Source: Candidatus Moraniibacteriota bacterium
GTDB lineage: Bacteria > Patescibacteriota > Minisyncoccia > Moranbacterales > UBA11712
Reading direction: 5' to 3'
NCBI GenBank assembly: GCA_030679895.1
Contig: JAUXSN010000055.1
Location: 1-58,234, forward strand
Length of the DNA stretch: 58,234 bases
Shown in pieces: positions 3,495 through 58,234 of the stretch. The notes under the pieces were generated by a model. The model was not told the origin of the DNA. It saw only the letters and a list, made by a program, of their open reading frames with translations, and searched no databases. Position 1 is the first letter of the stretch; the number at the start of each line of letters is the position of its first letter. Made by a program: the position numbers and the translations under genes.

Positions 3495-3644
3495 GAACTC
3501 AAAACTCAAACTGCAAAACGCAAAACCAAAGCGTAAAATTCAAAATTATCTTTTTTAAAATCAGTTTTGCGCTTTGCGTTTTCATTTGTTTGAAAATTGT
3601 GTCATTGGAAATTGAGAATTGATTGTAAATTGAAAATTGGAAAT
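3495..3644. repeat. Composite heptamer-repeat intergenic element
   Basis: caaaacgcaaaaccaaagcg...ttttgcgctttgcgtttt inverted pair, followed by aattgagaattg/aattgaaaattgg units like 30052-30180. Confidence 0.6.
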
Positions 3645-23976: not shown

Positions 23977-24008
23977 GATATATAGTAGGTTTAAAACTTA
24001 GCTCAAAT

Positions 24009-24105
24009 CTCAAAATTCAAAGCGTAAAGCCACAGCGCAAAGCGTAAAATTTTTTAGTCTTTAGCTTTGAGTTGTGGTTTTGAGTTTTGCGCTTTGCGTT
24101 TTGCG
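24009..24105. repeat. 97-bp heptamer-derived inverted-repeat element, copy A (after atpC)
   Basis: About 5 mismatches versus 29586-29682. Confidence 0.9.
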
Positions 24106-24106
24106 T

Positions 24107-24547
24107 TTACTCAATCCTCATTCCCCTCCTCGTCAAATGCTTTCGCGCCACTTTTATTCTGGCTAAGTTCTTCTCGAAGATCGCCGCCACGGTCGCGTAT
24201 TGGACTTCATCAGTCTGAATCCTTTCTTCTTTCAATTTTTCGGCTCGATCTTTCGCCTCTTCAGCCCGTTTGATGTCAATTTCTTCCGCCCGCTCGGCCG
24301 TGTCAGCCAAAATCGTAATTTCGTTTTTGCGAACTTCAACCATCCCGCCTGAAACCGCCATCGCGATTTCTTCGCCATCTTTTTTCGCGACTAGCTCTCC
24401 TGGTGCCAAAACGGAAATGAGCGGAATATGGTTTGGAAGCACGGTAATCTCTCCTTCTTGGGTAGGAAGGGTGACTTGATCAATGCTATCCTCGTAGACT
24501 GTTTTTTCAGGAGTTACTATTTTAAATTTTATCTTTTTGCCATTCAC
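24107..24547 (-). CDS. atpC: ATP synthase epsilon subunit
   Basis: KFKIVTPE, GEITVLPNHIPLIS, ITILADTAE; GTG start inferred. Confidence 0.93.
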   Translation of the reverse strand: MNGKKIKFKIVTPEKTVYEDSIDQVTLPTQEGEITVLPNHIPLISVLAPGELVAKKDGEEIAMAVSGGMVEVRKNEITILADTAERAEEIDIKRAEEAKDRAEKLKEERIQTDEVQYATVAAIFEKNLARIKVARKHLTRRGMRIE

Positions 24548-24655: not shown

Positions 24656-26035
<1,380 letters not shown>

Positions 26036-26056
26036 TTATTAAATATTATTCACTGA

Positions 26057-27019
26057 TCACTGATCAAGCGCCGCTCTCCCCGCGGAAATTTCCGCGATTT
26101 CCTGTGTAATGGAAGCCTGGCGGATCTGGTTGAATATGAGCGTCAGGTTGTCTACCATATCGTTGGCCGCGTCGGTCGCGTTTCGCATCGCCACCATCCG
26201 CGCTGATTCTTTCGAGGCATTCGATTCCAAAATTGCGTGGTATATTTGCATCTCAACAAGACGAGGCAAAATATTTTCCAGCACCGATCTCGCGTCCGGC
26301 TCAACTTTGTATTCCATCGGCGGTTCATTGAGTCCGTATTCTTTGGCCAAGACATCCATATCAGCCAGTTGTTTTTCAATTTCAATTTTCGAAACCGGAA
26401 GGAGCTGGCGGAGTTTGGGCTGCTGAACAACGGCGGAAACATAGTCTGTGTAGGCGATGACCACTTTGTCATATTTTTTTGCTTTGTATTCGTCCATTGA
26501 AAGCCTTGCCAGCGCGCGAACACTTTCTATGCCGGGGAGATATGTGAGCTCGTCAAAAGTGGCGACGATATTTTTGCTGATTTTCCGAATGAGACTCGCT
26601 CCCTTTTTCCCAACGGTCACGAAATCGATCTCAATTTTGTCATCCGGAACATTTGATTTGATTCTCTTTCCTCCAATCCGATTCACTTTGAGCTGTCCGG
26701 GATTTTTCACCTGCTCGACGACTTTTCGGATGAGCTGGGAATTGAATCCGCCGCAAAGTCCGCGGTTCGAGGTGACGACGATCATGAGAACTTTTTTCAC
26801 CTCCCGCGTCTCGAGAAGTTCGGTCGGATAGTTTTCAAAAGCGCGGGCCATGTTCGTCAGCACCGACCAGGCGCTGTGGGCATACGGCCGGATCGCAAGA
26901 ACGCTCGCCACCGCCCGGCGCATCTTCGAAGCCGCCACCATTTCCATGGCGCGAGTGATCTTCTTGGTATTGTTCACCGATTTTATTCGGCGTCTGATTT
27001 CGCGAGTTCCAGATGCCAC
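26057..27019 (-). CDS. atpG: ATP synthase gamma subunit
   Basis: REIRRRIKSV.NTKKITRAMEMVAASK, RGLCGGFN, RQASITQEIAEI; GTG start at 27019 (the ORF-track extension is repeat-derived). Confidence 0.96.
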   Translation of the reverse strand: MASGTREIRRRIKSVNNTKKITRAMEMVAASKMRRAVASVLAIRPYAHSAWSVLTNMARAFENYPTELLETREVKKVLMIVVTSNRGLCGGFNSQLIRKVVEQVKNPGQLKVNRIGGKRIKSNVPDDKIEIDFVTVGKKGASLIRKISKNIVATFDELTYLPGIESVRALARLSMDEYKAKKYDKVVIAYTDYVSAVVQQPKLRQLLPVSKIEIEKQLADMDVLAKEYGLNEPPMEYKVEPDARSVLENILPRLVEMQIYHAILESNASKESARMVAMRNATDAANDMVDNLTLIFNQIRQASITQEIAEISAGRAALDQ

Positions 27020-27024
27020 TTTTT

Positions 27025-27130
27025 CAGTGAACAGTGAACAGTGAACAGTGATCAAAAAATAATCAATGTTCTCAAATTCACTGTAGTAAAAAATAAAATT
27101 ACTGATCACTGATCGTTGATCACTGATCGT
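27025..27130. repeat. CAGTGAA / CACTGAT heptamer inverted-repeat element in the atpA-atpG spacer
   Basis: (cagtgaa)3cagtgat at 27025-27052 faces actgatcactgatcgttgatcactgatc at about 27101-27128. Confidence 0.8.
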
Positions 27131-28664
27131 TGCCGTACACTTCTTTATACTCTTCGATCGCTTTCTTGAGCGCGCTTTCCACTTCTTCCGTCAACTCTTT
27201 CTTCTCTTTGATCATCGCCAAAACGTCGCTCTTCATTTCTTTTATATATTCATGAAATTCTTTTTCCCATTTCTGGACATTTTCCACCGGCACATCGTCG
27301 AGATATCCGCTGGTCAAGGCGTATAAGATCGCCACCTGCTGCGCAACCGGCATCGGAACATATTGATCCTGCTTCAAAACCTCGACTGTCCGCTGGCCGC
27401 GCTCGATCTGTTTTCGTGTCGCTTCGTCAAGATCCGATCCAAATTGCGCAAAAGCCTCAAGTTCCCTGAACTGCGCAAGATCCAGCCGCAATTTCCCGGC
27501 CACCTTCTTCATTGCCTTGATCTGCGCGGCTGATCCTACCCGGGAGACGGAAAGACCGACGTTCAAGGCCGGTCGGATACCTTTATAGAACAGATCGGAT
27601 TCAAGATAGATCTGTCCGTCCGTGATGGAAATGACATTAGTCGGAATATATGCCGATACGTCGCCCGCTTGGGTTTCAATAATGGGAAGCGCGGTGATCG
27701 ATCCCCCGCCGAAATCTTTGGAAAGTTTTGCGCTGCGCTCCAAAAGCCTTGAATGGAGATAGAAAATATCTCCCGGATAAGCTTCCCGTCCCGGAGGACG
27801 CTTGAGAAGAAGCGACACTTGCCGGTACGCCCAGGCGTGTTTTGAAAGATCGTCATAAATAACGAGCACGTCCTTCCCTTGATCCATAAAATATTCTCCG
27901 ATGGCGCAACCCGCGTACGGCGCGATGAACGAAAGCGCGGCCGGATCAGATGCCCCAGCCACAACAACGATGGTATGGCTCATTGCTTCCCGCTTTTCAA
28001 GTTCGGCCACTATGCGCGCCACTTTTGATTCCTTTTGCCCGATAGCGACATAAATGCAAATGACATCTTCCGTTTTTTGGTTGATGATGGCGTCAATCGC
28101 CAGCGCCGTTTTCCCCGTTTGGCGGTCGCCGATGATGAGTTCTCGCTGTCCCCGTCCGATCGGAATCACTGAATCAATAGCCTTTATTCCGGTCTGGAGC
28201 GGCTGTTTCACCGACTCGCGCTCGATTACCCCCGCCGCGATTTTTTCGACCGGGTAAAACTTATCCGTTCTTATGTCTCCTTTTCCATCGACAGCCTGCC
28301 CAAGCGGATTCACCACTCGACCGATCATCGCTTCCCCTACGGGTACCGACAAAATTTTTCCGGTTGATTTCACCGTATCGCCTTCTTTTATTTTTTCATA
28401 TTCGCCCAAAATCATCACTCCGACTTGGTCTTCCTCTAAGTTTAAGGCAACACCAAAAACGGATTCGTTATTTTTTGTGTCAGTATTCGTTTTATTCGTG
28501 TTTACAAACTCCAGCATTTCACTCGCCATTGCGTCCGAAAGTCCGGAAACGCGCGCGATCCCGTCACCCACCTCGATCACGCGACCGACTTTCTCGGTCT
28601 TTGTTTCGGCTTTGAAATCTTCTATCTGTTTTTTTAGGGTCTCTACAATAAAATCTTTTGACAT
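27120..28664 (-). CDS. atpA: ATP synthase alpha subunit
   Basis: [18 protein letters not shown]-like [34 protein letters not shown]. Confidence 0.98.
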
Positions 28665-29567: not shown

Positions 29568-29585
29568 AGTATTTTTAGTTCAAAG

Positions 29586-29682
29586 CTCAAAATTCAAAGC
29601 GCAAAGCCACAGTGTAAAGCGTAAAGTTTTTTAGTTTTTAGCTTTGAGTTGTGGTTTTGAGTTTTGCGCTTTGCGTTTTGCG
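29586..29682. repeat. 97-bp heptamer-derived inverted-repeat element, copy B (after atpE)
   Basis: Near identical to 24009-24105. Confidence 0.9.
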
Positions 29683-29689
29683 CTTGAAA

Positions 29690-42014: not shown

Positions 42015-43298
42015 TCAGGACAGTTTCTTCATCAGCAGCGACTTTTGAGGGAATTTCCCCAGTAACCTAACAAAACAAACGTTCTTGCTCCCTCCATGGG
42101 CAGACCCGACTGATTCGCCTTTTTCGTTTTTTATCTCCTCTACTCGCGAAATAAAAATGTTTTTCGGGGTAATAATTTCAACTTTTTCACCAGTCTTAAG
42201 CGCATTATGCGCTTTTATTTTTTGCCAGCTTTTTCTATTTTTCCCGATAATTTCCCCTACAAATTGATAACTATTTTCCCGATGGGAACAGTCAGAATTA
42301 TTCTCCCATTTATCCTTTCCGAATAAAAACCCGGTTGAGTATCCCCGATTTGTCAGTTTATTCAATTCATTTTTTTCCGCCTTGATAATCTTATTTAACT
42401 CTTTTTCTGATTTTTTGCTTCCAATCGCGTCAATTACTCGGCGATAGGCTTTTGTTGAAACAGCCGCGTAGAAAACACTTTTTGTCCTTCCTTCAATCTT
42501 AAACGCATTTATCCCGGCCTTGGCCAATTTATCCAGATGCTCGATCAAACAAAGATCTTTGGAATTTAGAAAGTATGTTCCGTGTGAATCTTCTTCCACG
42601 GTCATAATTTTTGAATCATCCGCATATAAAATGTCCGTCCCGCTCTGCGGGACACCAAAGTTTTGCGCTTTGCACTTTGCTCTTTGCACTTTATATTTCC
42701 ATCGGCACGGCTGAACGCAGTCCCCCAAATTGGCGCTCCGATACCGCATCCAGCTGGATAGCAAACATCGCCCGGAAAGACTCATGCACATCGCCCCGTG
42801 AACAAAATATTCGAGTTCTATTTTCGGACACGCTTTCCTGATTTTTTTGATTTCTTCAAGCGTAACTTCCCGCGCCAGAACTATTCTTGACACTCCCTGC
42901 AACCGCCAAAATTTTACCGCTTCCGAATTTGTGGTATTGGCCTGCGTGGAAAGATGGATCTTGATTTTTGGAGAATGCTTTTTAACCAGGCTTAATATTC
43001 CGGGATCGCTGACGATCACCGCGTCGGGCTTGATTTTTTTTATAAACGCGAGATGTTTTTTTATTTCAGCCAAATGCCGCTGATGCGCATAAATATTGAG
43101 CGTAAAGTATATTTTTTTGTCGAGCTTTCGCGCCGCGTCCACCGCTTTTTTTAGATTCTTTTCGCCAAAATCATTGAGTCTTGCCCGAAGAGAAAAATCC
43201 GGATGACCGATATAGACCGCATCCGCGCCGAAGTGATAGGCATATTCAATTTTCTCAAGACTCCCGCCGGGAGCGACAAGTTCGATTTTTTTGACCAT
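42015..43298 (-). CDS. U32 family protein (TrhP/YegQ-like tRNA hydroxylation)
   Basis: ELVAPGG, GADAVY, HGAMC.S.SGRC, C.QPCRW, SKDLC, KIEGR.KS. Confidence 0.9.
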   Translation of the reverse strand: MVKKIELVAPGGSLEKIEYAYHFGADAVYIGHPDFSLRARLNDFGEKNLKKAVDAARKLDKKIYFTLNIYAHQRHLAEIKKHLAFIKKIKPDAVIVSDPGILSLVKKHSPKIKIHLSTQANTTNSEAVKFWRLQGVSRIVLAREVTLEEIKKIRKACPKIELEYFVHGAMCMSLSGRCLLSSWMRYRSANLGDCVQPCRWKYKVQRAKCKAQNFGVPQSGTDILYADDSKIMTVEEDSHGTYFLNSKDLCLIEHLDKLAKAGINAFKIEGRTKSVFYAAVSTKAYRRVIDAIGSKKSEKELNKIIKAEKNELNKLTNRGYSTGFLFGKDKWENNSDCSHRENSYQFVGEIIGKNRKSWQKIKAHNALKTGEKVEIITPKNIFISRVEEIKNEKGESVGSAHGGSKNVCFVRLLGKFPQKSLLMKKLS

Positions 43299-43314: not shown

Positions 43315-44127
43315 CTATTTCTTCCCTTTTATCCTCTCATTGTTCTCCAGAACCGATTTGATGAATTTCGGATCATATCCCGCTTTTTCGCTCGCTTTCA
43401 CGATCGCGTTCACGTCTTTCGGCAGGCATTTTCCGGAAAATCCCCGCGCGTCCGGGAAAACAGCCGAGAACATTCTTCCCATCCGCTTGTCCGAAAGCCA
43501 AAGCTCCCGAAGTTCTTTATACTCGACGCCAAAGGCCCGGGCAATGTTATAGAATTCGTTGCAAAAAGTGACTTTCGTGGCGATAAAAGCGTTTTCCATA
43601 TATTTCACCGCTTCGGCCGTCGTCGAATCGGTGATATAAAATTTCGCGTCCGGCCCCATCACCCTCACGAAAAAATCCGCAATCCGGGAAGCCGTTTCTT
43701 TTTCTCCGCCGATAATCTGAAAACTGTGGCATTTCATGTCTTTAGGGTGGGCGTATTTCCAAAAAGGAATGAAGTAACCGCCTTCTCCCATATATTCCGG
43801 AGAAAAACAGATTTTCTTGCCGGTTTTTTTCATGAGATATTCGGTCGTTTTCGGCGGTATGGTGCTTTTGACCAAAATTAGCGGAGTCCCGAGCCAGCCC
43901 AAAGTCTTTTCGATGATATTCAAATCGCAGGCTCCGTCCTCTCCCGTTGGAGTGGGAACGCAAATCACTCCCAGATCGCATTTGTTTATTTCTTCTTTCG
44001 AAGCCGAACCGGAAACGTTGGGATCATAATAGATCGTTTCAAAATTGTCTTTGAAAAAATCATAGACCCCTTTTCCGACATAGCCGTATCCGATAACGGC
44101 CACTTTCTTTTTTTTATTATCAGCCAT
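43315..44127 (-). CDS. UDP-glucose/GDP-mannose dehydrogenase family protein, lacking the C-terminal domain
   Basis: VIGYGYVG, ICVPTP, KSTIPP, SPE, KYMEN.F.ATKVTF.NE, GFSGKCLPKD; ends at 270 aa. Confidence 0.85.
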   Translation of the reverse strand: MADNKKKKVAVIGYGYVGKGVYDFFKDNFETIYYDPNVSGSASKEEINKCDLGVICVPTPTGEDGACDLNIIEKTLGWLGTPLILVKSTIPPKTTEYLMKKTGKKICFSPEYMGEGGYFIPFWKYAHPKDMKCHSFQIIGGEKETASRIADFFVRVMGPDAKFYITDSTTAEAVKYMENAFIATKVTFCNEFYNIARAFGVEYKELRELWLSDKRMGRMFSAVFPDARGFSGKCLPKDVNAIVKASEKAGYDPKFIKSVLENNERIKGKK

Positions 44128-44176: not shown

Positions 44177-45421
<1,245 letters not shown>

Positions 45422-47420: not shown

Positions 47421-48140
47421 TTACGTGAAATAGAATCTCAAGAAAATTTCTTTTATCTTCTCAAGCCCCCGCAGCTCTTCTCCAGCTACCCTTATTTTCA
47501 CGATTCTAATCAGCGGATTCGCCAAAAAAAGCCGCAGAAGCTTGATCTGGCTATCTGAAATATCGAAAAGCCCTTTTTTTTCCAGCGCGCATTGCGGACA
47601 AACGACCCCTCCTTTTTCAACGGCAAAGAAGTTTTTTTTCTCTTTTTTGAGGCTGGTCCCGCAATTCACGCATCTGGCCGCTTCCGGCCTTTGCCCCAGC
47701 CGGTCAAACAGCTTCCACCAAAAAGCGAGGATTATCAATTTTTCTTTTTCTCCCCCGTTTTTGTTTCTTTCTCCGTCCAGCACTTTCAAAAATTCGCTTA
47801 GCAAATCAAATGTTTTTTTATCCTTCTCGCCTTCGCTGAAAATTCTGGAAAAAAATTTGAAAACGCCGATGACCGCCTGCAATTTCCCCAAACTGCTTTT
47901 TATCCCATCGAAATTGGAAATCGTTATCGCGCTCGCGATCTGGCCCCGCCCCCGCGCTTTCGCTATGTACACTTCGGACAAGGTTCCCGGCTCCAGATGC
48001 CCGGCCAGTTTCGCCGCCGGCTTTCTCACTCCCCGCCCAATGGCCTTCACTAATCCTGATTCCAAAGTATACATTATATAGATGCGGTCGAATTCCCCGA
48101 CATCATAATGGGATAAAATTATCGCCGTGTATTTTTGCAT
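47421..48140 (-). CDS. recO: DNA repair protein RecO
   Basis: GEFDRIY.MYT...G.VKA..RGVRK, CxxC...GGVVCxxC zinc finger. Confidence 0.92.
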   Translation of the reverse strand: MQKYTAIILSHYDVGEFDRIYIMYTLESGLVKAIGRGVRKPAAKLAGHLEPGTLSEVYIAKARGRGQIASAITISNFDGIKSSLGKLQAVIGVFKFFSRIFSEGEKDKKTFDLLSEFLKVLDGERNKNGGEKEKLIILAFWWKLFDRLGQRPEAARCVNCGTSLKKEKKNFFAVEKGGVVCPQCALEKKGLFDISDSQIKLLRLFLANPLIRIVKIRVAGEELRGLEKIKEIFLRFYFT

Positions 48141-48238
48141 GATTCAAGCATAGCAAAAAATCCCCACAAAAGAAAAACGCCGCGGAGTGTAAACACACAC
48201 CTCGCGGCTTGAAAATTCTTGTCATGATTGACCCCCCG

Positions 48239-48535
48239 CTATTGTACTTCCTTGCATTTTTTGCATCGCCGCAGTGATAGAGGCGGAAAAGAAAGATTCC
48301 CTCCTCCGATTCCATCAAAGCGGAAACCATACCATGGATCGCGATCCAAAAGTATTTGCTCCAGCGTCAGTAATGGCTCGAATTCGGTACCCCCACAGCT
48401 CAAGCACTTAGCGGGCTCCATTAGCCATTTCCGGAATTTTTCGCTCGGCCCGGACTTTAAAAAGACGTAAAACCAAAGAGCAAACATCCCGAGAACAATA
48501 AAATATCCAACTACCTCTTTTAGCGTCAGTGTCAT
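48239..48535 (-). CDS. Small TM + zinc-ribbon hypothetical protein
   Basis: SD GAGGAGG; TM; CLSC ... CKKC. Confidence 0.65.
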   Translation of the reverse strand: MTLTLKEVVGYFIVLGMFALWFYVFLKSGPSEKFRKWLMEPAKCLSCGGTEFEPLLTLEQILLDRDPWYGFRFDGIGGGNLSFPPLSLRRCKKCKEVQ

Positions 48536-48559
48536 AGTTTTCCTCCTCGGCAGCGCCGG

Positions 48560-48790
48560 TCAAAGTTGTTCTTTTCTCATCATCCACCAGATCCCAATTG
48601 CCAGAAAAAAGACAGCAACTAGGAAGCTTAGGCAGAAAAATATAAATTGATCGCGAGTGGAAAGGCCGATGAAGTAGGAAATTGTCCATCCGCTAAACCA
48701 AATAATTACACAAAACACGCCCAGAAGCGCTTCACTCCTTGTGATCTTATGCTCCTTCTTTGTCTCGTCGCCTTCTAACGCTTGCTTCAT
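48560..48790 (-). CDS. Small two-TM hypothetical protein
   Basis: SD GAGGAGGTG; two hydrophobic helices. Confidence 0.6.
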   Translation of the reverse strand: MKQALEGDETKKEHKITRSEALLGVFCVIIWFSGWTISYFIGLSTRDQFIFFCLSFLVAVFFLAIGIWWMMRKEQL

Positions 48791-48860
48791 CAGCCATCAC
48801 CTCCTCCTCATCACCATTCCGAGATATCCTACCTGGATACACATTTCCCCTCCTTCACTT

Positions 48861-49151
48861 TCAGGCAATGCATTCAAAGCCGGTATGGTTTTTTGGTTTG
48901 TCTTCCGGAATCGAATGCACTGGTTTGCACCAGCACGGATAGCGCCGAAATAAAAAACGGTCAACCCGCCACATAATAAGGGCTATGATGATTATTCCCG
49001 CGACAACAACTTTCTCCTTGATTTCATGAGGCACACGATGAGAAACATCAACAAGCGCCCACAAAACCAGTGCTACGAGCAAAAATCCCTCGATCAAGTT
49101 GAGGCTCGTGGAACATACTAGGCAATGCGTCTTACTCTTCTTGTCGGTCAT
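48861..49151 (-). CDS. Small two-TM hypothetical protein with Cys motifs
   Basis: SD-like GAGGGAG; CLVC, two TMs, CWC. Confidence 0.6.
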   Translation of the reverse strand: MTDKKSKTHCLVCSTSLNLIEGFLLVALVLWALVDVSHRVPHEIKEKVVVAGIIIIALIMWRVDRFLFRRYPCWCKPVHSIPEDKPKNHTGFECIA

Positions 49152-49196
49152 GATGGCTCTCCCTCGCGATTTTAAGGAGCTATTCGCTCTTTATAT

Positions 49197-52133
49197 TTAA
49201 ACCCTTTTGAGCCACACTTTGATAGCTTCCGCTTCCAGATCCAAAAGTTCGGAAATATCGGCGTCGGTTTTTTCGTCTTCCGTTTCTATCGCTCCCGTCG
49301 CCAGAACTTCCCGAGCTATCAAATCGCCGAATTTTTCAAAAATAGCGGTTCCCCCTTTATAGTACACATTTATCCTGTCGTCAACCTGGAATCCGGCATG
49401 TTTGCGAAGCTCTTGGATTCTTCTCACAATTTCGCGCGCCTCCCCTTCCAGCCGCAAATCATCCGAAATCGCCGTGTCGAGGCCGATCATCCAGTTTCCT
49501 TCTTTCTCGGTATAAATGCCGGCTTTCATTTCAACCGATCCGTAAAACTTGATTTCTTTTACGTTTACTTCGTCCTTTATCAGGTTCGCTAAATCTTCGT
49601 CCACCGGCTGATTGATTTGCAGCTCGGAAAGCGGCTGGCGGACTTTGATTCCCGCTTTCGCTCTCGCCGCCAGTCCCAGTTTCACAAACCGGCGCGTGAT
49701 CTGCATTTGCTCGTTGAGTTCCTTATCAATCAACTTTTCATTTTCTGCGGGAAAATTCGCCAAGTGAACAGAATCTTCTCCCGAGAGATTCTTATAGACT
49801 TCCTCCGCGACAAACGGCGTGAAGGGCGCCATCAGTTTCGAAAGCTCCGTTAAAACGTAGTGCAAAGTTTCATATGCCTGTTTTTTGTCCTCGTCATTCT
49901 CGCTTTTCCAGAATCTCTTCCGGCTCCGGCGGATATACCAATTGGAAAGATTATCAATAAACACCGGAAACAACCTTGCTGCTTTATTTAACTCATAATT
50001 CTCCATGTGCTGATTGACGTTTTTGATCAAGCTGTTCAGCTCTGAAATGATCCACTTGTCGAGCAAGTTCCCAAGGTCCGACCTTGAGACGTTCCCAAGG
50101 TCCGACCTTGGTTCGAACTTATCTATATTCGCGTAAAGCACGAAAAATGAATACGTATTCCAAAGCATCCGGAACATTCCTTTGAAAATATCTTTTAGAT
50201 CTTCATCGTTGAAGTTCAAATTTTCTCCTCCCATGAGGGGAGACTGCATCAGATAAAATCTAAAAGCATCGGCGCCGTATCGGTCGATCAGGATATTCGG
50301 ATCAGTGAAATTTCCAAGCGACTTCGACATCTTCTTTCCGTCGCTTCCGGCGATCGTTCCAGTCGTGACCGCGTTCAAGAAGCTTGACTTTCCAAAGAGA
50401 CCGACGGAAAGCACGTGAAGCGTATAAAACCAGCCCCTTGTTTGAGCAATATATTCGGAAATAAACTGAGCGGGAAATCTGTTCTTGAATTCTTCTTTAT
50501 TTTCAAAAGGATAATGAAATTCAGCAAATGGCATCGACCCCGATTCAACCCAGCAATCAAAAACATCCGATATTCTTTTCATCACTCCGCCGCACTTTTC
50601 GCAGGGAAAAGTTATCTCGTCAATCATCGGCCGATGATAGTCTTCGAGTCTCTTTCCGGATAGCTTTTCCAGTTCTCCAAACGACCCGATTATTTTCGCG
50701 TTGTTACATTCCAAAGCTTTGCGCTTTGAGCTTTGCGCTTTGAGCTTATTCTCGCACTCCCAAATCGGCATAGGCGTTCCCCAAAAACGGGAGCGGGAAA
50801 CATTCCAATCGGGAGCCGTTTCAAGACCATTCTTAAATCTTCCTTCTTTGAGATGCGCCGGATGCCAGTTAATTTTTTCATTTTCGTCAAGCAATTTTTT
50901 CTTGAGATCGGAAATCTTGATAAACCACGCCGGTTGAACCATGTATATGAGTTTCGTGTGGCAACGATAGCAAAACGGATAAGAATGAGAGATATTTTCT
51001 TTTTTAAAAACAAGGCCCTGTTCGGCGATATGCTTTAATATTTTAAAATTCGCTTCCCAGACATTTTCACCAGCCCATTTTCCATCTTTGAATTTTCCTT
51101 CGTCGTCCACATTTTCAATGATGGGTAAATTTTTTTCTTTTCGCGTTCGAAAGTCATCTTCCCCGAAAGCCGGAGCTATGTGCACAATTCCCGTTCCTTC
51201 CTCCAGACTTACAAAATCACCGGAGACTACCCGATAACCGTTTTTAATTTTTTGAGGAAAAATCGGTTGATAGATAAGATTAACCAAATCTTTTCCTGTC
51301 ATTTCTTTTTCTATTTTATAATCTCCACTGATAATTTCTAGCCTTTCTTTGGCTAGAATATATTTTTCTCCGTCTTGTTTTACCAGTGCATAGATTGCAT
51401 TCGGATTGACGGCGATCGCGACATTCCCCGGCAATGTCCAGGGAGTAGTCGTCCATACTAAAAATTTTGCGGCTTTAAAATCCTCCTCATCTTCGATTTT
51501 CAATTTGAAATATACAGAAGCGTCTTGTACATCACGATAGCTCGAATCCATAGCAATTTCAAAATTGGAAAGCGGCGTCGCGCAACGCGGGCAATAAAGA
51601 GAAATTCGAGAATCTTTATATACCAGTTTTTTATTGTGCAACTCTTTGAATCCCCACCAGACTGATTCCATAAAATCGTTGTCCATCGTCTTGTAGGAAT
51701 TGTCAAAATCTACCCAGCGCCCGATTCGGCGAATGGTTTTCCGCCATTCGTCCGCGAATTGCAGAACTGTATTTCTAGCCTCATCGTTGAATTTAGCGAT
51801 ATTTTTTTCGATGTCTTTTTTTCCTTTGTAGTCGAATTTTTTTTCAATAATATTTTCAATCGGCAGGCCGTGCGTATCCCATCCCCAGCGGCGCGGCACA
51901 TTATATCCCTTCATCGTCCAGTACCGAGGAACTACATCTTTCGAGGTCGAGGCTAAAAGATGGCCGTGGTGAGGCAGGCCCGTCGCGAACGGCGGACCGT
52001 CATAAAAAGAATAGAGCTCCGCATCCTTGCGGTTCTCCAAAGATTTTTCGAATATTTTATTCTCTTCCCAGAATTTGAGGATATTTTCCTCCATTTCAGG
52101 AAGGGATTGTTTTGGATCGACAGGTTTCAACAT
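49197..52133 (-). CDS. ileS: Isoleucine--tRNA ligase, type 2 (archaeal/eukaryote-like)
   Basis: FYDGPPFATGLPHHGH, WTTTPWTLP, QTRGWFYTL, KMSKS, no C-terminal FPG-type zinc finger. Confidence 0.97.
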   Translation of the reverse strand: MLKPVDPKQSLPEMEENILKFWEENKIFEKSLENRKDAELYSFYDGPPFATGLPHHGHLLASTSKDVVPRYWTMKGYNVPRRWGWDTHGLPIENIIEKKFDYKGKKDIEKNIAKFNDEARNTVLQFADEWRKTIRRIGRWVDFDNSYKTMDNDFMESVWWGFKELHNKKLVYKDSRISLYCPRCATPLSNFEIAMDSSYRDVQDASVYFKLKIEDEEDFKAAKFLVWTTTPWTLPGNVAIAVNPNAIYALVKQDGEKYILAKERLEIISGDYKIEKEMTGKDLVNLIYQPIFPQKIKNGYRVVSGDFVSLEEGTGIVHIAPAFGEDDFRTRKEKNLPIIENVDDEGKFKDGKWAGENVWEANFKILKHIAEQGLVFKKENISHSYPFCYRCHTKLIYMVQPAWFIKISDLKKKLLDENEKINWHPAHLKEGRFKNGLETAPDWNVSRSRFWGTPMPIWECENKLKAQSSKRKALECNNAKIIGSFGELEKLSGKRLEDYHRPMIDEITFPCEKCGGVMKRISDVFDCWVESGSMPFAEFHYPFENKEEFKNRFPAQFISEYIAQTRGWFYTLHVLSVGLFGKSSFLNAVTTGTIAGSDGKKMSKSLGNFTDPNILIDRYGADAFRFYLMQSPLMGGENLNFNDEDLKDIFKGMFRMLWNTYSFFVLYANIDKFEPRSDLGNVSRSDLGNLLDKWIISELNSLIKNVNQHMENYELNKAARLFPVFIDNLSNWYIRRSRKRFWKSENDEDKKQAYETLHYVLTELSKLMAPFTPFVAEEVYKNLSGEDSVHLANFPAENEKLIDKELNEQMQITRRFVKLGLAARAKAGIKVRQPLSELQINQPVDEDLANLIKDEVNVKEIKFYGSVEMKAGIYTEKEGNWMIGLDTAISDDLRLEGEAREIVRRIQELRKHAGFQVDDRINVYYKGGTAIFEKFGDLIAREVLATGAIETEDEKTDADISELLDLEAEAIKVWLKRV
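50067..50110. repeat. 24-bp-period direct repeat of a CCG-triloop hairpin inside ileS
   Basis: gttcccaaggtccgaccttg twice; encodes RSDLGNVSRSDLGN. Confidence 0.9.
50717..50747. repeat. CTTTGCG/CTTTGAG heptamer array inside ileS
   Basis: Encodes KLKAQSSKRKA; 20-mer ctttgcgctttgagcttatt is identical to intergenic 2843-2862. Confidence 0.85.
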
Positions 52134-52230
52134 AACAAAAAATATTATCTAAACCCCTTTAGACATTTAACCTTTATTTTTGACAATCGTCAACTTCGTT
52201 GAGCATGTAAAGTTTAGGGAGTCTGTTCCC

Positions 52231-54609
52231 CTACCTCACCCTCACCTTCACTTTTCTTTTAGCCATGTTCCCGGCGCGGTCATAGGTGCGGATGATAAGC
52301 TTATGGCTGCCTTTTTTGAGGTTTTCCGGCAGGGTGAACTGGGCAATGGCGGATTGGGACTTTACTCCCCGGAAAGTCAGCCGGTAATGGTCGATTTGGT
52401 CGTTGTCTGTTGTGCTCCAGGTGATGGTATCTCCGGGGGAGGCATTGATTGTTTTGGGGAGGTTGGTGATCTTGGGATTCAATCTGTCGATGAGGATGGT
52501 ATAGGTGGGAGAAACCAGGAGGACTTGTTTGTCTTTGTTGAGGTATTTGAATTGATAGGTATGGGTTTGGTTCTTCCTGGGTTTAGTGCGGAATCGGTAG
52601 CGGTGGTTTTTGTTGATTTTGACGTTCTTGAGGAGTTTTCCGTCCTGGAAGATCTGGACAATGGTGGCCGTGGAGAGGTTTTCCACCTTGCCGGAGAAAA
52701 CCAGGTAGGGAGATCTGAGAGTGATCTGGTTGTCTGGATCGAGGTTGAGGGTGGTGTGGTTGCCGATCTTGATGACTGGAGTGTAGGTGGAATTGGAGAA
52801 GTTGAGGGTGAGACTGTGAAGAACAGGAGTCTGATTTTGGTCGGTGGTGGAAAGGGTGGCTCGGTATTGGATGTAACGGGCGTCTCTGGAAGCTATGGAG
52901 TCAGAGGCGTCTTTCCAGTCTTCCCAAGTATCGTCGGGTGTAGGAGTGTCCCCGACTCTGGTTTGGTAGGTGATGGAGGTATTGGCGGGTTTTGTGGCGT
53001 CTTCGGTGAGGGCTCCCCATTGACTGGTGTTTCCGGAGTCGAGGACGGGAGAGGTGAAGAGGCCGGATGTTCCATATAATCCTTCAGATTCACGGGCGTA
53101 CTTAATTTCAACGCTGTTGAGACTGGGGGTGATGGAAGTGTTGTTGGTGGAAAGGACCGCTTTGTACCGGAGGCTATAGGCGGAGTTTACGGGGAGATAG
53201 TGAGTTCCCTCTTCTGTTCCGAGGCTTTCGTAGGTTTTTCCTGAGTCGAGGGAGTAAAGAAGCTCCACTGAAGTTCCGCTTGGGGTGGTGGAGTCCCAGT
53301 TTATTGAGGAGTAGAATTCTTTTTGGTAGGCGTCGGAGAGATAGGTGGTGGGAAGTTTGTAGACGTCGTCGGCGGAATTCCAATCAGTATCTTTTCCGCC
53401 GATAATGAAGATGTCGCCGTTGACGATTTGGGCGGCAGTGCGATGAAGCGATAAGGGAAGGTCAGTTAATTTGTTCCAGGAGTCGGTTTCCGGATTATAG
53501 ATTAAAATATCGTCAACAGGATCCCAGTCATTATTTGTCCCCCCGATAACGAGCATTTTACCATCGATAATAGCTGAGGAAAGTCCAGACCTGGCTTCCG
53601 GCATGGAAGCTTTGGTTTCCCAGGTATCAGTAGCTATATCATATACTTCTAGAATATTAGTGAACGTATAATCATCTCCACCTCCCGCTACATATATTTT
53701 TCCTCCAATGGCTTGCGCCGTGACACCCTGGCCTCTGGGCGTCGGCATTGGCGTTTTAGTTTCCCAGGTATTGCTTGTCGGGTCATATACTTCAACAGTG
53801 TCAAATGATTCGCCCCAATCACCTGACTTTCCTTCCGATCCGCCAATTACGTATAATTTTCCATCAAAAACCGCAGAAGCTGGCCCTGTCCTTGCTGTGG
53901 GCATTGAGGCTTTGGTTTCCCAGGTATTACTTGAAGGATTATAGATCTCGAGAGTTGCCATGGAGTTCCAGTCTTTATCTCGTCCTCCAACGACATAGAG
54001 TTTTCCGTCAATGACAGCCGAAGCAGGAGTTACTCTTGGCTCTGAAAGCGAAGCTTTGTCTGTCCAGGTGTCATTTTCCGGATCATACATTTCCATAGTT
54101 GCCTGATCATCCCAATCCTTTGTGCCGCCTGCCACGTATATTTTTCCATCTATCACTCCGGAGGAGGAGGCAATTCGGGCTGTGCCCATTGAGGTTTTGG
54201 TTTGCCAAAAGGTACCTGCACGATCAATATTTTTACTTATATATAAACCTTGCTCATTAAAACCATTCCCTAAATTAATTACATTTATGCCTCCCCCATC
54301 AGTTACGACATATAGGAGATTATTTGCATGGTCGATAAAAGTATTGCGGATACGATTGCAATTCAAGCCTGGCGTAGAATTAGAGTCATAAAACTTGTGC
54401 AGAACATCATCTGATGGATCCTTATTACCCTTAGTATCTACCACAGACAAACCACTAGTTTGATAACCATCGTAGGTTCCGATGTAGAGAAGATTTCCAT
54501 CGACTAACACGTGGGTAACATTATTGAAAGTCAATGCGGGGCTAGAAGCAGTTGTGAAATTAGTAACTAATGCATCATCAGAGGTATCTTTGGTTCCCTT
54601 CGTGTCCAC
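52231..54609 (-). CDS. 3' part of a frameshifted surface protein: propeller repeats, Kelch propeller, FN3/Ig-like and basic C-terminal domains
   Basis: Six Kelch repeats (GKIYVAGG...E.YDP..DTW); frame continues from 54578..55735 across a TA tract. Confidence 0.85.
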   Translation of the reverse strand: MDTKGTKDTSDDALVTNFTTASSPALTFNNVTHVLVDGNLLYIGTYDGYQTSGLSVVDTKGNKDPSDDVLHKFYDSNSTPGLNCNRIRNTFIDHANNLLYVVTDGGGINVINLGNGFNEQGLYISKNIDRAGTFWQTKTSMGTARIASSSGVIDGKIYVAGGTKDWDDQATMEMYDPENDTWTDKASLSEPRVTPASAVIDGKLYVVGGRDKDWNSMATLEIYNPSSNTWETKASMPTARTGPASAVFDGKLYVIGGSEGKSGDWGESFDTVEVYDPTSNTWETKTPMPTPRGQGVTAQAIGGKIYVAGGGDDYTFTNILEVYDIATDTWETKASMPEARSGLSSAIIDGKMLVIGGTNNDWDPVDDILIYNPETDSWNKLTDLPLSLHRTAAQIVNGDIFIIGGKDTDWNSADDVYKLPTTYLSDAYQKEFYSSINWDSTTPSGTSVELLYSLDSGKTYESLGTEEGTHYLPVNSAYSLRYKAVLSTNNTSITPSLNSVEIKYARESEGLYGTSGLFTSPVLDSGNTSQWGALTEDATKPANTSITYQTRVGDTPTPDDTWEDWKDASDSIASRDARYIQYRATLSTTDQNQTPVLHSLTLNFSNSTYTPVIKIGNHTTLNLDPDNQITLRSPYLVFSGKVENLSTATIVQIFQDGKLLKNVKINKNHRYRFRTKPRKNQTHTYQFKYLNKDKQVLLVSPTYTILIDRLNPKITNLPKTINASPGDTITWSTTDNDQIDHYRLTFRGVKSQSAIAQFTLPENLKKGSHKLIIRTYDRAGNMAKRKVKVRVR

Positions 54610-55735
54610 TACTGATAGTCCAGAACTTGTACATATATATATATAGCAGATTATCTGATTGATTTAAATACACATAACCTACACTGTTTCCAATAATGGC
54701 TGGCGATGTAGATGTATTATAAGTCTTCACTACTAAGTCAGTATTTATGTCAAGAACTGAAAGACCGTTGTTCGTGCTGACATAAAGCAAGTCATTGGCT
54801 TCATCAAACAAAACTTGAGAGATGCTATTACCGGCAATAGCCGGAGTTGACGATGTTCTATAGGTTTTGATTAGAACATCATCTGCTGGATCAACTGTCC
54901 CCTTCGTGTCGATCACAGATAGTCCATTGCCCGTGGAAACATACAACCGATTCCGTTGGGTATCAAGATATGAAGAATTGATTTCGTTACTAGCAATGGC
55001 GGGAGTGGAAGTCGTAGAATATCTAATAACTAAAGTATCGTCCGATGGATCTTTTGTTCCTTGGGTATTGATAACTGATAGCCCTCCAGGACCAGTGCTT
55101 CCATATGTAATGGTGCTCACGTAAAGGAGATTATGATCCTTATCAAGGAAGGAGTGTAAAACTACATTACTGCCAATAGCCGGATTTGTATCCACCCTAT
55201 AATTCATGACTAGCGTGTCGTCATTGGGAAGAGGGGTGCCTTTCGTATCAAGCACTGACAATCCCCCCAAATCAGTTCCGTAATATACAGGCCAACCCCA
55301 AGTACTGACATAAATGAGATTATCTGAAAAATCTGCAAAAGCGTGCATTGCATATTGATGACCTATGGCTGGAACGGTGTCTGAACTATAATAATAGGTA
55401 TATCCTTTACCAAGTGTTAGCTCACTGTCTTCACTCTCTGAAATGTTAGTTCTGTTATAGCCTGAGTCTGGTTGAATATCTCCTCTCTCAAAATCCTCTT
55501 TCGTCGTCTCCGTATAGGTATTGAGGTTCTGTTTGAGTTTCACATCCCCCGGCGCTTGGTTGAGCTCGAGGGTGTTGTCGACGGCTCCAGCTTGGAAATC
55601 AGCTTGGGTGTCTTGGATAATCTGTCCACTAGCCGCATTCGCTTTCTTAGTCTGCAAGGGATAAGGAAAAACAATCGCTAGGGTCAAAAGCAGTGCTGAA
55701 AATATTTTTATTCTTTTTTTTCTTTGTCTTTTCAT
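54578..55735 (-). CDS. 5' part of the same surface protein: signal peptide plus LVIVD-like propeller repeats
   Basis: Signal peptide ending ANAA; repeats NLLYVST..GLSV.DT.GT.DP.DD; reading frame derails at LLYIYMY. Confidence 0.85.
   Translation of the reverse strand: MKRQRKKRIKIFSALLLTLAIVFPYPLQTKKANAASGQIIQDTQADFQAGAVDNTLELNQAPGDVKLKQNLNTYTETTKEDFERGDIQPDSGYNRTNISESEDSELTLGKGYTYYYSSDTVPAIGHQYAMHAFADFSDNLIYVSTWGWPVYYGTDLGGLSVLDTKGTPLPNDDTLVMNYRVDTNPAIGSNVVLHSFLDKDHNLLYVSTITYGSTGPGGLSVINTQGTKDPSDDTLVIRYSTTSTPAIASNEINSSYLDTQRNRLYVSTGNGLSVIDTKGTVDPADDVLIKTYRTSSTPAIAGNSISQVLFDEANDLLYVSTNNGLSVLDINTDLVVKTYNTSTSPAIIGNSVGYVYLNQSDNLLYIYMYKFWTISSGHEGNQRYL
54633..54645. repeat. (AT)n microsatellite at the frameshift
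   Basis: atatatatatata, 13 nt; 9 or 15 nt would restore the frame. Confidence 0.9.
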
Positions 55736-55761
55736 TTTTCATCTTTCTTTTAGCTGTTCCC

Positions 55762-58234
55762 CTACCTCACCCTAACCTTGGCTTTCCTTGTGGCTTTGTT
55801 TCCGGCTCGGTCATAGGCGCGGATGATAAGCTTATGGCTGCCTTTTTTGAGGTTTTCCGGCAGGGTGAACTGGGCAATGGCGGATTGGGACTTTACTCCC
55901 CGGAAAGTCAGTCGGTAATGGTCGATTTGGTCGTTTTCCCTCATTTGCCAGGTGATGGTGTCTCCGGCTTGGGCGTTGATTTTCTTGGCGGGCCCCAGGA
56001 ACTTGGGCTTCAGCTTGTCGACGAGAATATTGTATTCGGGGGAAGCGAGGATTTCTTCCAGGGTGTTCTTTTCCAGGTAGCGGAACTGGTAGGAGTGGGT
56101 TTGGTTTCTTTTGGGTTTGAGCTTGTAGCTCCATCTTAGGTTCTTTTTGAGCTTGACATTCTTTTTCAGTTTTCCGTCCTCATATATCTGGACAATGTCC
56201 CCTTTTTTGAGGTTGGGGATCTTTCCTCTGAAAGTGAGGGTTTGGTTTCGGAGGGAGACGGTTTCATTGGCGGAAAGGGAGTAGATCTTGTTTTTTCCTA
56301 TGCGTATAGTGGGTTTAAAGGTGGAGGCGGAATAATTGAGGGTCATTCCCTTTAAGACTGGGGTCTGGTTTTGGTCGGTGGTGGTGAAAGTAGCTTTGTA
56401 TTGGATGTATCTTGAGTCGGGAGAAGTTATGGGAGAAGCGGCGTCTTCCCAGCCGGACCAGACGGAATCCGGAGTCTCAGTGTCCCCGGTTCGGGTTTGG
56501 TAGGTAATGCCGGTTCCGGTTGGGATGGTTTCTTCGGTTTCGAGGGTTCCCCACTCGGCGATGTCTTCGGCATCCATGACGGAGGAGGTGTAGGTGCCGG
56601 AAGAGGATTCGAAGAGGTTTTCGGACGCCTGGGCGTATTTGAGCTCGACACTGTTGAGGCTTGGGGTGATGGAGGTGTCATTGGTCGTGAGGACTGCTTT
56701 GTACCTCAAGTTGTAAGCCGAGTTTATGGGGAGATAGTGGGTCCCCTCTTCGGTTCCGAGGCTTTCGTAGGTTTTGCCGGAATCGAGGGAATAGAACATC
56801 TCAACCGATGTTCCCGCGGGGGTAGTGGAATCCCAATTGAGCTGGGCGTAGGATTCTTTTTGAGAGAGATTGGAAGTATAATTCGAGCTGAGTAAAAAGT
56901 TAGTAGTAACACCTTCATTAGCATAATCGTTGGGTGCCCCTGTAATCACATAGAGATTATTATTCACAACTTGGGCTACTGGCCGATGCCGAATTGCTGG
57001 CAAGTTCGAAAAGTTACTCCATAAATTATCGACCGGGTTATAAAGGAAAATGCTGTCAGTCGAGTTCCAAGCAATATCCGTACCCCCAATGTACAAAAAA
57101 TTACCGTCGACGATCGCAGAGGTTCCGCCCGCTCTTTTGTCTGGCATAGAAGGACCAATAGTCCAGGAGTCGCTCTCCGCGTCATATATATATAGTTTTT
57201 CAGATAATACTCCGGAAACCTGGCCTCCGGCGACATATAGTTTGCTGCCGATGAATTGGGCAGTAGCTGAGTTTACCTTATCGGCGGGAATTGAAGCTTT
57301 GATTGTCCAAAAATCAGTGTCAGGATCATAGACTTCTAAACTTGTTTGGCCACTTCCCCATTCTTCAGAAGCTCCTCCAACTACATATAGTTTTCCGTCA
57401 TAAACTCCTCCAGCAGGACCAATCCTTACATTGGACATCGAGGACTTGGTCTCCCAGGTATTGGTATCCGGATTATAGACTTCAAGCGAATTTGTGGCAT
57501 TTCTTGAAATATCTTTACCTCCGACAACATACATTTTTCCATTAATAACTCCTGCCAATGGAGTATTTCGTTCAATTGACATGGGGGTTTTAGTCTCCCA
57601 CGAATCAGATTCTGTATTGTAAACATATAGTGTTTTTGTCAAAGTTGCACCTGTATCATATCCTCCAGTAATGTATATTTTTCCATTGATAGCGGCACTG
57701 GTGGCTCCCAACCTCGCACTAGGAAGCGCAACCTTGTTTTGCCATACATTTGTTTCTTCTCCATCGATGTTTCTTGTATAAATACCCTGATTGTTGTATG
57801 TATTAAGATTTACGACCGAAAGGCCGCCGCCATAAGTTGAGACATAGAGGAGGTTGTTCGTAGAATCGAGGAAGGAGTGGTAGACATAGTTGTTTCCGAT
57901 AGCCGGAGAAGTGGAAGTGGTATAGGTTTTAACAAGCGTGTCATCGGCGGGACTGACTGTCCCCTGGGTGTTCAGGACCGAAAGGCCGCCGTCATAAGTT
58001 GAGACATAGAGGAGGTTGTTCGTAGAATCGAGGAAGGAGTGGTAGACATTGTTATTTCCAATAGCCGGAGAAGTGGAAGTGGTATAGGTTTTAACAAGCG
58101 TGTCGTCGGCGGGATCGACTGTTCCCTGGGTGTTGATGACGGAGAGGCCGCCATAAGTTGAGACATAGAGGAGGTTGTGAGTGGAGTCGAGGAAGGAGTG
58201 GCGGACATAGTTATTTCCAATCGCGGGAGTTGTG
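55762..58234 (-). CDS. Paralogous propeller/Kelch surface protein (5' end lies beyond the window)
   Basis: The frame of ORF 55762..57711 stays open to 58233; same domain order and near-identical C-terminus as 52231..55735. Confidence 0.88.
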   Translation of the reverse strand, partial: TTPAIGNNYVRHSFLDSTHNLLYVSTYGGLSVINTQGTVDPADDTLVKTYTTSTSPAIGNNNVYHSFLDSTNNLLYVSTYDGGLSVLNTQGTVSPADDTLVKTYTTSTSPAIGNNYVYHSFLDSTNNLLYVSTYGGGLSVVNLNTYNNQGIYTRNIDGEETNVWQNKVALPSARLGATSAAINGKIYITGGYDTGATLTKTLYVYNTESDSWETKTPMSIERNTPLAGVINGKMYVVGGKDISRNATNSLEVYNPDTNTWETKSSMSNVRIGPAGGVYDGKLYVVGGASEEWGSGQTSLEVYDPDTDFWTIKASIPADKVNSATAQFIGSKLYVAGGQVSGVLSEKLYIYDAESDSWTIGPSMPDKRAGGTSAIVDGNFLYIGGTDIAWNSTDSIFLYNPVDNLWSNFSNLPAIRHRPVAQVVNNNLYVITGAPNDYANEGVTTNFLLSSNYTSNLSQKESYAQLNWDSTTPAGTSVEMFYSLDSGKTYESLGTEEGTHYLPINSAYNLRYKAVLTTNDTSITPSLNSVELKYAQASENLFESSSGTYTSSVMDAEDIAEWGTLETEETIPTGTGITYQTRTGDTETPDSVWSGWEDAASPITSPDSRYIQYKATFTTTDQNQTPVLKGMTLNYSASTFKPTIRIGKNKIYSLSANETVSLRNQTLTFRGKIPNLKKGDIVQIYEDGKLKKNVKLKKNLRWSYKLKPKRNQTHSYQFRYLEKNTLEEILASPEYNILVDKLKPKFLGPAKKINAQAGDTITWQMRENDQIDHYRLTFRGVKSQSAIAQFTLPENLKKGSHKLIIRAYDRAGNKATRKAKVRVR
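57831..58234. repeat. 159-162-bp coding tandem repeats (53-54 aa)
   Basis: Unit starts cataagttgagacatagaggaggttg at 57831, 57993 and 58152. Confidence 0.92.

Follow-up and report, generated by a model that had tools for sequence, protein, structure and literature searches.

A TA run that splits a predicted secreted double-propeller gene in a Candidatus Moraniibacteriota bacterium: recent frameshift or phase-variable switch?

Does a short alternating tract that interrupts a gene mark a single recent mutation, or is it a switch by which the gene is turned ON and OFF? The question is raised by a 13-nt run of TA units in a 58,234-base stretch of DNA from a Candidatus Moraniibacteriota bacterium, a member of the candidate phyla radiation (CPR); the whole of this stretch is referred to below as the window. 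The run breaks one large gene, predicted to encode a secreted protein with two β-propellers, into two reading frames. An initial annotation had described the site as a contingency locus that is currently OFF. The slippage-type lesion and the OFF state both stood up to analysis, whereas the contingency locus itself was not demonstrated, as only one allele was seen. The account that we favour, at roughly even chances, is a slipped-strand frameshift that was most likely a recent one-off inactivation of an accessory gene for a secreted protein.

The tract, (AT)6A / (TA)6T, reads ATATATATATATA on the plus strand within the sequence GTACATATATATATATAGCAG. On the coding (minus) strand it is flanked as C-TATATATATATAT-G and lies inside the codons CTA TAT ATA TAT ATG, so that the minus-strand reading across it is AAT CTG CTA TAT ATA TAT ATG TAC AAG TTC TGG. 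It was the longest dinucleotide run in the window and the only 13-nt alternating tract there, and none of 100 dinucleotide-preserving shuffles yielded one. No homopolymers of at least 9 A/T or at least 7 G/C were present in the window, nor was there any further long simple repeat across the 58 kb. The tract occupies codons 364–368 of the fused open reading frame (ORF), with codon 366 of 1166 placing it at about one third of the gene's length. Past the tract the upstream ORF continues for 18 out-of-frame residues, MYKFWTISSGHEGNQRYL, before a TGA at 54578–54580, its C-terminal reading being NQSDNLLYIYMYKFWTISSGHEGNQRYL and then the stop. The +1-frame continuation in the downstream ORF begins VDTKGTKDTSDD and encodes the remainder of blade 5, blades 6 and 7, the Kelch propeller, two β-sandwich modules and Ig-like domains. 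Coordinates of these features are collected in Table 1.

Table 1. Position and basis of the features of the interrupted gene and its paralogue (window coordinates)
Feature	Position	Strand	Basis or remarks
TA tract, 13 nt	54633–54645		Frameshift site
Upstream ORF, 385 aa	54578..55735	minus	Signal peptide, ~110-aa N-terminal region, blades 1–4, half of blade 5
Downstream ORF, 792 codons	52231..54609	minus	+1 frame; incidental GTG start; frame open from the tract on
Predicted signal peptide MKRQRKKRIKIFSALLLTLAIVFPYPLQTKKANA/AS	55634..55735	minus	Basic N-terminus, hydrophobic core, A-x-A site
Seven-bladed LVIVD-like β-propeller, residues ~113–490 of fused protein	54262..55399	minus	Repeat alignment, model
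Kelch-repeat β-propeller, residues ~540–790 of fused protein	53362..54114	minus	PF24681, Kelch_1
C-terminal bacterial Ig-like domain Big_13	52240..52437	minus	Below Pfam cut-off here, above in paralogue
Tandem paralogue, same architecture	55762..58233	minus	Directly upstream; 823 open codons to window edge
In-frame 11-nt TA run in paralogue Kelch domain	57184–57194		CTA TAT ATA TAT = LYIY; second-longest dinucleotide run in window

Rebuilding the region with tracts of 7, 9, 11, 13, 15, 17, 19 and 21 nt separated the lengths into two groups. Simulated tracts of 9, 15 and 21 nt gave a single ORF of 1166, 1168 and 1170 aa, respectively, with a terminal stop only; tracts of 7, 11, 13, 17 and 19 nt led to a stop after 374–387 aa. 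This agrees with the initial annotation, which had placed the run where the LLY(I) repeat consensus breaks and had stated that loss of two TA units or gain of one fuses the ORFs and that no other lesion is visible; the run lies within the codons for a single β-strand, LLY-I-C, of one repeat unit. Since a full-length product is impossible by standard decoding of the 13-nt allele, the gene is OFF. The 9-nt allele yields NLLYICTSSGLSVVDTKG, whose alignment with the remaining repeat units needs no gaps (NLLYICTS-SGLSV vs NRLYVSTG-NGLSV) and which keeps the family-invariant spacing of Tyr365 and Gly371.

The native product is predicted to be one secreted two-propeller polypeptide of ~1166 aa. The signal peptide call was read from the sequence by eye, and residues 2–22 were helical in an AlphaFold2 model of the fused protein, which was built with 22 homologues. 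In this model, pLDDT was >90 over residues 110–490 and pTM was 0.75, and the first propeller formed seven four-stranded blades, corresponding to seven copies of a ~53-aa unit (TSPAIgxNxVxxxfLDxxxNLLYVSTxxGLSVxDTxGTxDPxDDxLV). Foldseek matches for this propeller were generic seven-bladed ones, namely the BT4663 sensor domain, YncE and leptospiral Lp49. PF08309 (LVIVD) was found on several homologues (precomputed matches, one of them faint), while the query itself had no match at E≤0.01. The Kelch domain was matched by PF24681 (E=2.8e-80, 269 bits, cut-off 50) and by PF01344 Kelch_1 (E=9e-73, 240 bits, cut-off 20.1), and is followed by two β-sandwich-like modules common to the family consensus and by Ig-like domains ending in Big_13. 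The protein thus resembles LVIVD/Kelch propeller surface proteins in the PF08309 matches of its homologues, the seven-bladed model and the strong Kelch match, but differs from its relatives, which are typically ~860 aa and without Kelch. Among the matches, the fusion of two propellers with Big_13 was confined to this gene and its paralogue. The double-propeller protein plausibly binds a host cell or a substrate.

The position of the break within this fold bears on whether one gene or two are present. In the model the tract (residues 365–367) falls inside the β-strand 363–368 of blade 5, so that the 385-aa product would hold 4.5 of seven blades. Two genuine genes, one for a short secreted half-propeller protein and a separate one for a Kelch/Ig protein, would fit with two ORFs that are both long and open, but the break lies within a single β-strand of one blade, and the paralogue and the family code the propeller and its downstream modules in one chain. 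The downstream ORF had no Shine–Dalgarno sequence or other ribosome-binding site and no signal peptide of its own, and the coding strand gave no promoter match at the tract; an internal promoter or a separate downstream gene was rejected on these grounds. Because blade 5 continues across the junction and the downstream part lacks start and export signals, the two-gene reading, which we consider hardly credible, is not tenable.

The allele itself could be questioned, as it was found in a single public run, the groundwater metagenome X1. An artefact of sequencing or assembly, in which the true tract is in frame and the gene intact, is suggested by the depth of only ~10×, by simple repeats being the commonest place for consensus indel errors, and by the frameshift being the sole defect found in the window. 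It is nevertheless improbable. Logan, which assembled this run independently, gave one 3498-nt contig over the site, with zero differences and the same 13-nt tract, which makes an assembly error, named by the initial annotation as what would refute it, unlikely. The 13-nt run is also well within a 31-mer and a short read, an error of 2 or 4 bases would be needed and not of 1, and the other genes checked in the window were all intact, which argues for a clean assembly. Word depth of the Logan contig was 9.6, compared with 9.2–10.2 for the flanking ileS and 11.3 for the paralogue. No alternative contigs over the site were found in X1; contigs drop minor variants, so minor alleles would be invisible in them. 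The sole 100 % protein match (P0001, called on the Logan contig) carried the same out-of-frame tail. Exact-protein look-up of the 385-aa ORF returned no entry, no in-frame allele was found in a collection of 5.8 billion proteins, and a search with the exact flanks and a variable gap gave no matches in the genome and metagenome contig collections.

Given a real 13-nt template, full-length protein might still be made by recoding, either through a ribosomal −2/+1 shift on (UA)n or through transcriptional slippage of UA units. A dinucleotide run would allow perfect re-pairing of tRNA-Tyr and tRNA-Ile two bases back, and the downstream frame stays open over 792 codons. Yet no Shine–Dalgarno-like stimulator was found upstream of the tract, and the 133 nt downstream folded worse than shuffled sequences (z = +1.87), with a fold as good or better in 198 of 200 shuffles. 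The stop in the 0 frame does not lie at the shift site but 54 nt from it, and the arrangement is missing from the homologues and the paralogue, which are single ORFs. A programmed ribosomal frameshift site, with neither stimulatory structure nor Shine–Dalgarno sequence and with relatives that are single ORFs, is therefore unlikely, and recoding in general we hold to be very improbable.

The gene belongs to a tandem pair that is strain-specific accessory DNA, dispensable in relatives. The initial annotation had assigned the DNA to a CPR organism, in accord with the neighbouring IleRS, which was 76 % identical to that of a Candidatus Moraniibacteriota metagenome-assembled genome, the following matches being to other CPR genomes. 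In the relative with the 76 %-identical IleRS, a glycosyltransferase occupies the position of the gene pair. In related ileS neighbourhoods from seven further runs (X4–X10), similarity ended at the ileS start (52133) and the broken gene was not covered, and the closest protein relatives elsewhere were 40–45 % identical. The ORF at 49197..52133 was considered as a relative or paralogue of the broken gene and rejected, as it encodes IleRS; the true paralogue is the ORF directly upstream, with 53 % protein identity to the broken gene. The paralogue had been called intact, and this holds for the 823 codons that are open; as its 5′ end lies off the window, its intactness was checkable in part only. 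Its propeller blades are coded CTC TAT GTC, without a TA run.

The 3′ ends of the two paralogues (52223–52520 and 55754–56051) were 83 % identical over 298 nt, compared with ~70 % elsewhere. Their last ~40 residues are near-identical, and the similarity reaches past the stop codon to the first bases that follow it (GTGAGGTAGGGGAACAG); gene conversion or a common 3′ signal could account for it.

Under the favoured reading, the ancestral blade-5 strand L-L-Y-I-C-T would have been coded CTA TAT ATA TGT, which contains a 9-nt TA run by chance. Replication slippage would then have lengthened the run from 9 to 13 nt by two TA units, or dropped one unit from an intermediate in-frame allele of 15 nt. 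The ribosome would thereby be shifted to the −1 register relative to the remaining gene, and translation would end after 385 aa to leave a truncated and presumably functionless product, with the remaining 792 codons silent for want of start signals and a signal peptide of their own. In the single groundwater sample with the organism, the dominant genotype carries the OFF allele, and the intact-looking paralogue directly upstream could make the loss tolerable. The lengthened tract would be more prone to slippage, and reversion by one added unit would be possible in principle.

Homologues show how ordinary or unusual such runs are in this family. Homologue loci were sampled singly (7 homologue loci; 87 fetched loci overall). 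A TA run of at least 12 nt was present in none of the 7 homologue loci and in one of the 87 fetched loci. Runs of 8–9 nt at Tyr-Ile codons were ordinary in the family (for example in L082, in L085 and at 54238–54245, with the 11-nt run of the paralogue as a further case), which would suit a 9-nt starting state. The remaining blades of the broken gene and all blades of the paralogue used CTC/TAT/GTC-type, non-TA codons. TA-maximal Y-I/I-Y codon pairs made up 7 of 19 in the gene pair vs 8 of 70 in housekeeping genes (~3×; the counts are not independent), and CTA, a codon rare in the background (3 % of Leu), is used for Leu in the TA runs of the gene pair, which hints at a bias in codon choice towards TA runs. 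The loop after the LLYxxT strand varied from 2 to 13 residues between blades, so the 2-residue insertion of a 15-nt allele could be tolerated.

A frameshift was also found in the homologue L082 (4001–6548 on a 20.7-kb Logan contig), which is split into 508 + 349 aa with no simple repeat at the site; its C-terminus is a hydrophobic helix, and a sortase gene adjoins it. This is either a second broken member of the family or a contig error. As the split lies away from any repeat, plain frameshifts would occur in the family. Another homologue-bearing contig, from marine sediment (L001, 338–2269), carries the same coding sequence twice in inverted orientation, head-to-head at ~1465, and is probably an assembly artefact, either chimeric or palindromic.

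The alternative to a one-off event is a true contingency locus, in which selection keeps the TA tract as a hypermutable switch that is ON at 9 or 15 nt and OFF at 11 or 13 nt, the sampled majority being OFF; such a locus would hedge over attachment to a host, or over recognition by phage or host. Slipped-strand mispairing underlies both readings, which differ in rate and in selection on mutability. Several observations favour a switch and weigh against a one-off loss. There is no second lesion in 1166 codons and no further decay of the gene, and therefore the event would be very recent or the frame kept open by selection, which would fit a switch too. The 13-nt allele is one step from the 15-nt ON allele, one added unit restoring a clean ORF of 1168 aa, and two steps from 9 nt. 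The tract is far above chance in the shuffles, the gene pair holds the longest and the second-longest dinucleotide run of the window, and TA-maximal codons are enriched there, with the rare CTA. A 2-residue insertion is compatible with the variable blade loops, and the setting of a secreted, strain-specific protein with tandem paralogues is typical of phase-variable genes. Contigs, moreover, cannot reveal minor alleles.

Tract length can be read either way. PhasomeIt predicts phase-variable genes from dinucleotide tracts of at least 6 units (PMC6321876), and the present tract, with 6.5 units, only just reaches this cut-off; the ON allele that matches the repeat register has only 4.5 units (9 nt), under any prediction cut-off. 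The authors of that study also cautioned that tracts of cut-off length may mutate at <1e-5 and be too stable for real switching, a caveat that extends to the present 6.5 units. Further points count against a switch: only the 13-nt allele was seen (in the window, the Logan contig and P0001), with the proviso that contigs hide minor variants; the repeat is not conserved in the homologues, the paralogue or the other blades; the tract is mid-gene and not near the 5′ end; and the window holds no other long simple repeat. No paper linking CPR bacteria to phase-variable genes was found in the literature searched. Papers retrieved for Saccharibacteria and phase variation concerned, in the portions available, other organisms or mechanisms, and nothing usable for this lineage was found in the literature on mismatch repair in CPR bacteria; neither mutS nor mutL was among the window genes scanned. 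On balance, selection for a hypermutable tract is possible but doubtful, and that the TA run is a working ON/OFF switch of a strain-specific secreted double-propeller protein, with the paralogue constitutively open, is a slightly more tentative proposition still.

Comparison with known systems leads to the same position. In the hif fimbriae of Haemophilus influenzae, a (TA)n tract between the −35 and −10 elements tunes transcription; the unit and its gain or loss by slippage are the same here, but the present tract is coding, and no promoter match was found over it on the coding strand. Intragenic phase variation at simple sequence repeats in Haemophilus, Neisseria, Helicobacter and Campylobacter is closer, in that a unit other than a triplet lies inside an ORF for a secreted or surface protein and its gain or loss toggles between full-length and truncated products, and in that the PhasomeIt length cut-off is reached (PMC6321876). 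The differences are that the TA tract is at the bottom of the accepted range and mid-gene where those loci are 5′-proximal, and that the repeat is unconserved, is the sole such tract in 58 kb and shows a single allele in contigs. Within the CPR, the nearest published parallel found was a hypervariable repeat gene of a Gracilibacterium, with 9-mer units coding PTD and polymorphism seen in reads (Sieber et al., 2019; PMC6851277). It shares with the present gene a CPR host, a large extracellular protein and repeat variation of the slippage type, there within a population, but varies in frame and alters protein length and not the ON/OFF state.

Ordinary frameshift pseudogenes at short runs are similar to the locus in the single whole-unit indel and in affecting an accessory gene with a paralogue, L082 also being split; here, by contrast, the gene is pristine over 1166 codons and the mutation would have lengthened the tract into a reversion-prone range. 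The locus works like intragenic phase variation but is equally well a fresh frameshift pseudogene. It was not classed as a contingency locus because the repeat is unconserved, its length is borderline, and a single allele of this uncultured bacterium was seen in contigs.

The rest of the window consists of dense, mostly minus-strand housekeeping genes (an ABC transporter, GlmS, LeuRS, the F-type ATP synthase operon, MetRS, peptidases, TGT, RecO and IleRS), and Rfam and tRNA scans of it gave no matches. A second strain-variable spot adjoins ileS: the recO–ileS gap (48140–49205) contains ~1 kb of small unannotated ORFs, which in related strains from other groundwater runs is replaced by ~950 nt of other sequence or skipped. 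Between tgt and the U32 peptidase gene, an ORF of 270 aa (43315–44127) resembles UDP-glucose/GDP-mannose dehydrogenases, with a partial N-terminal domain and the central domain but without the C-terminal domain, and may be a truncated remnant.

Repeats of other kinds were found in the window. A 43-nt double palindrome, TGGAAGCTTAGCTTCCA-NNNN-TGGAAGCTAAGCTTCCA, occurs in three copies 93–95 % identical (2026–2068, 20120–20162 and 44399–44441), two of them in frame in housekeeping ORFs. The LeuRS copy codes NGSLASTMEAKLPN, and the TGT copy lies in a 24-residue insert (residues 320–343) that does not align with the best-matching solved TGT. The element resembles selfish palindromic DNA that has entered protein-coding genes, as the Rickettsia palindromic elements have.

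Heptamer arrays were also present. The LeuRS ORF contains a perfect (TGAACAG)×4 array and, ~125 nt away, an inverted degenerate partner (18685–18713 and 18838–18868), which lie in variable loops coding ERLFTVHCSLF and KSVISEQRSVNN. The same heptamer family is found at both ends of atpG (26034–26066, 27023–27054 and 27098–27132). Because their unit of seven bases is no multiple of three, the TGAACAG arrays could act as frameshift hot spots within essential genes. A 111-nt element of CAAAGCG/CAAAACG-type heptamers in palindromic order is present twice, with one copy near each end of the ATP synthase operon (23998–24108 and 29575–29685); the copies are 93 % identical. Related arrays at 2817–2859, 3496–3545, 42662–42692 and 50715–50747 include ones inside the U32 peptidase ORF and ileS; the array in ileS codes KLKAQSSKRKA, and the 76 %-identical IleRS of the relative (L002) has a different insert there.

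If the lesion is a fresh frameshift only, it is ordinary decay of an accessory gene at a short repeat, and the locus carries a caution: phase variation cannot be deduced from a lone OFF allele when the repeat is marginal and the source a metagenome contig. A switching tract would mean that ultra-small, probably episymbiotic bacteria of groundwater have in common with host-associated pathogens the stochastic variation of surface proteins through simple repeats. To judge by the literature searched, it would be the first case of repeat-driven ON/OFF phase variation described in CPR bacteria. The secreted LVIVD/Kelch double-propeller protein would then be a handle on how these bacteria vary their contact with partners or phages.

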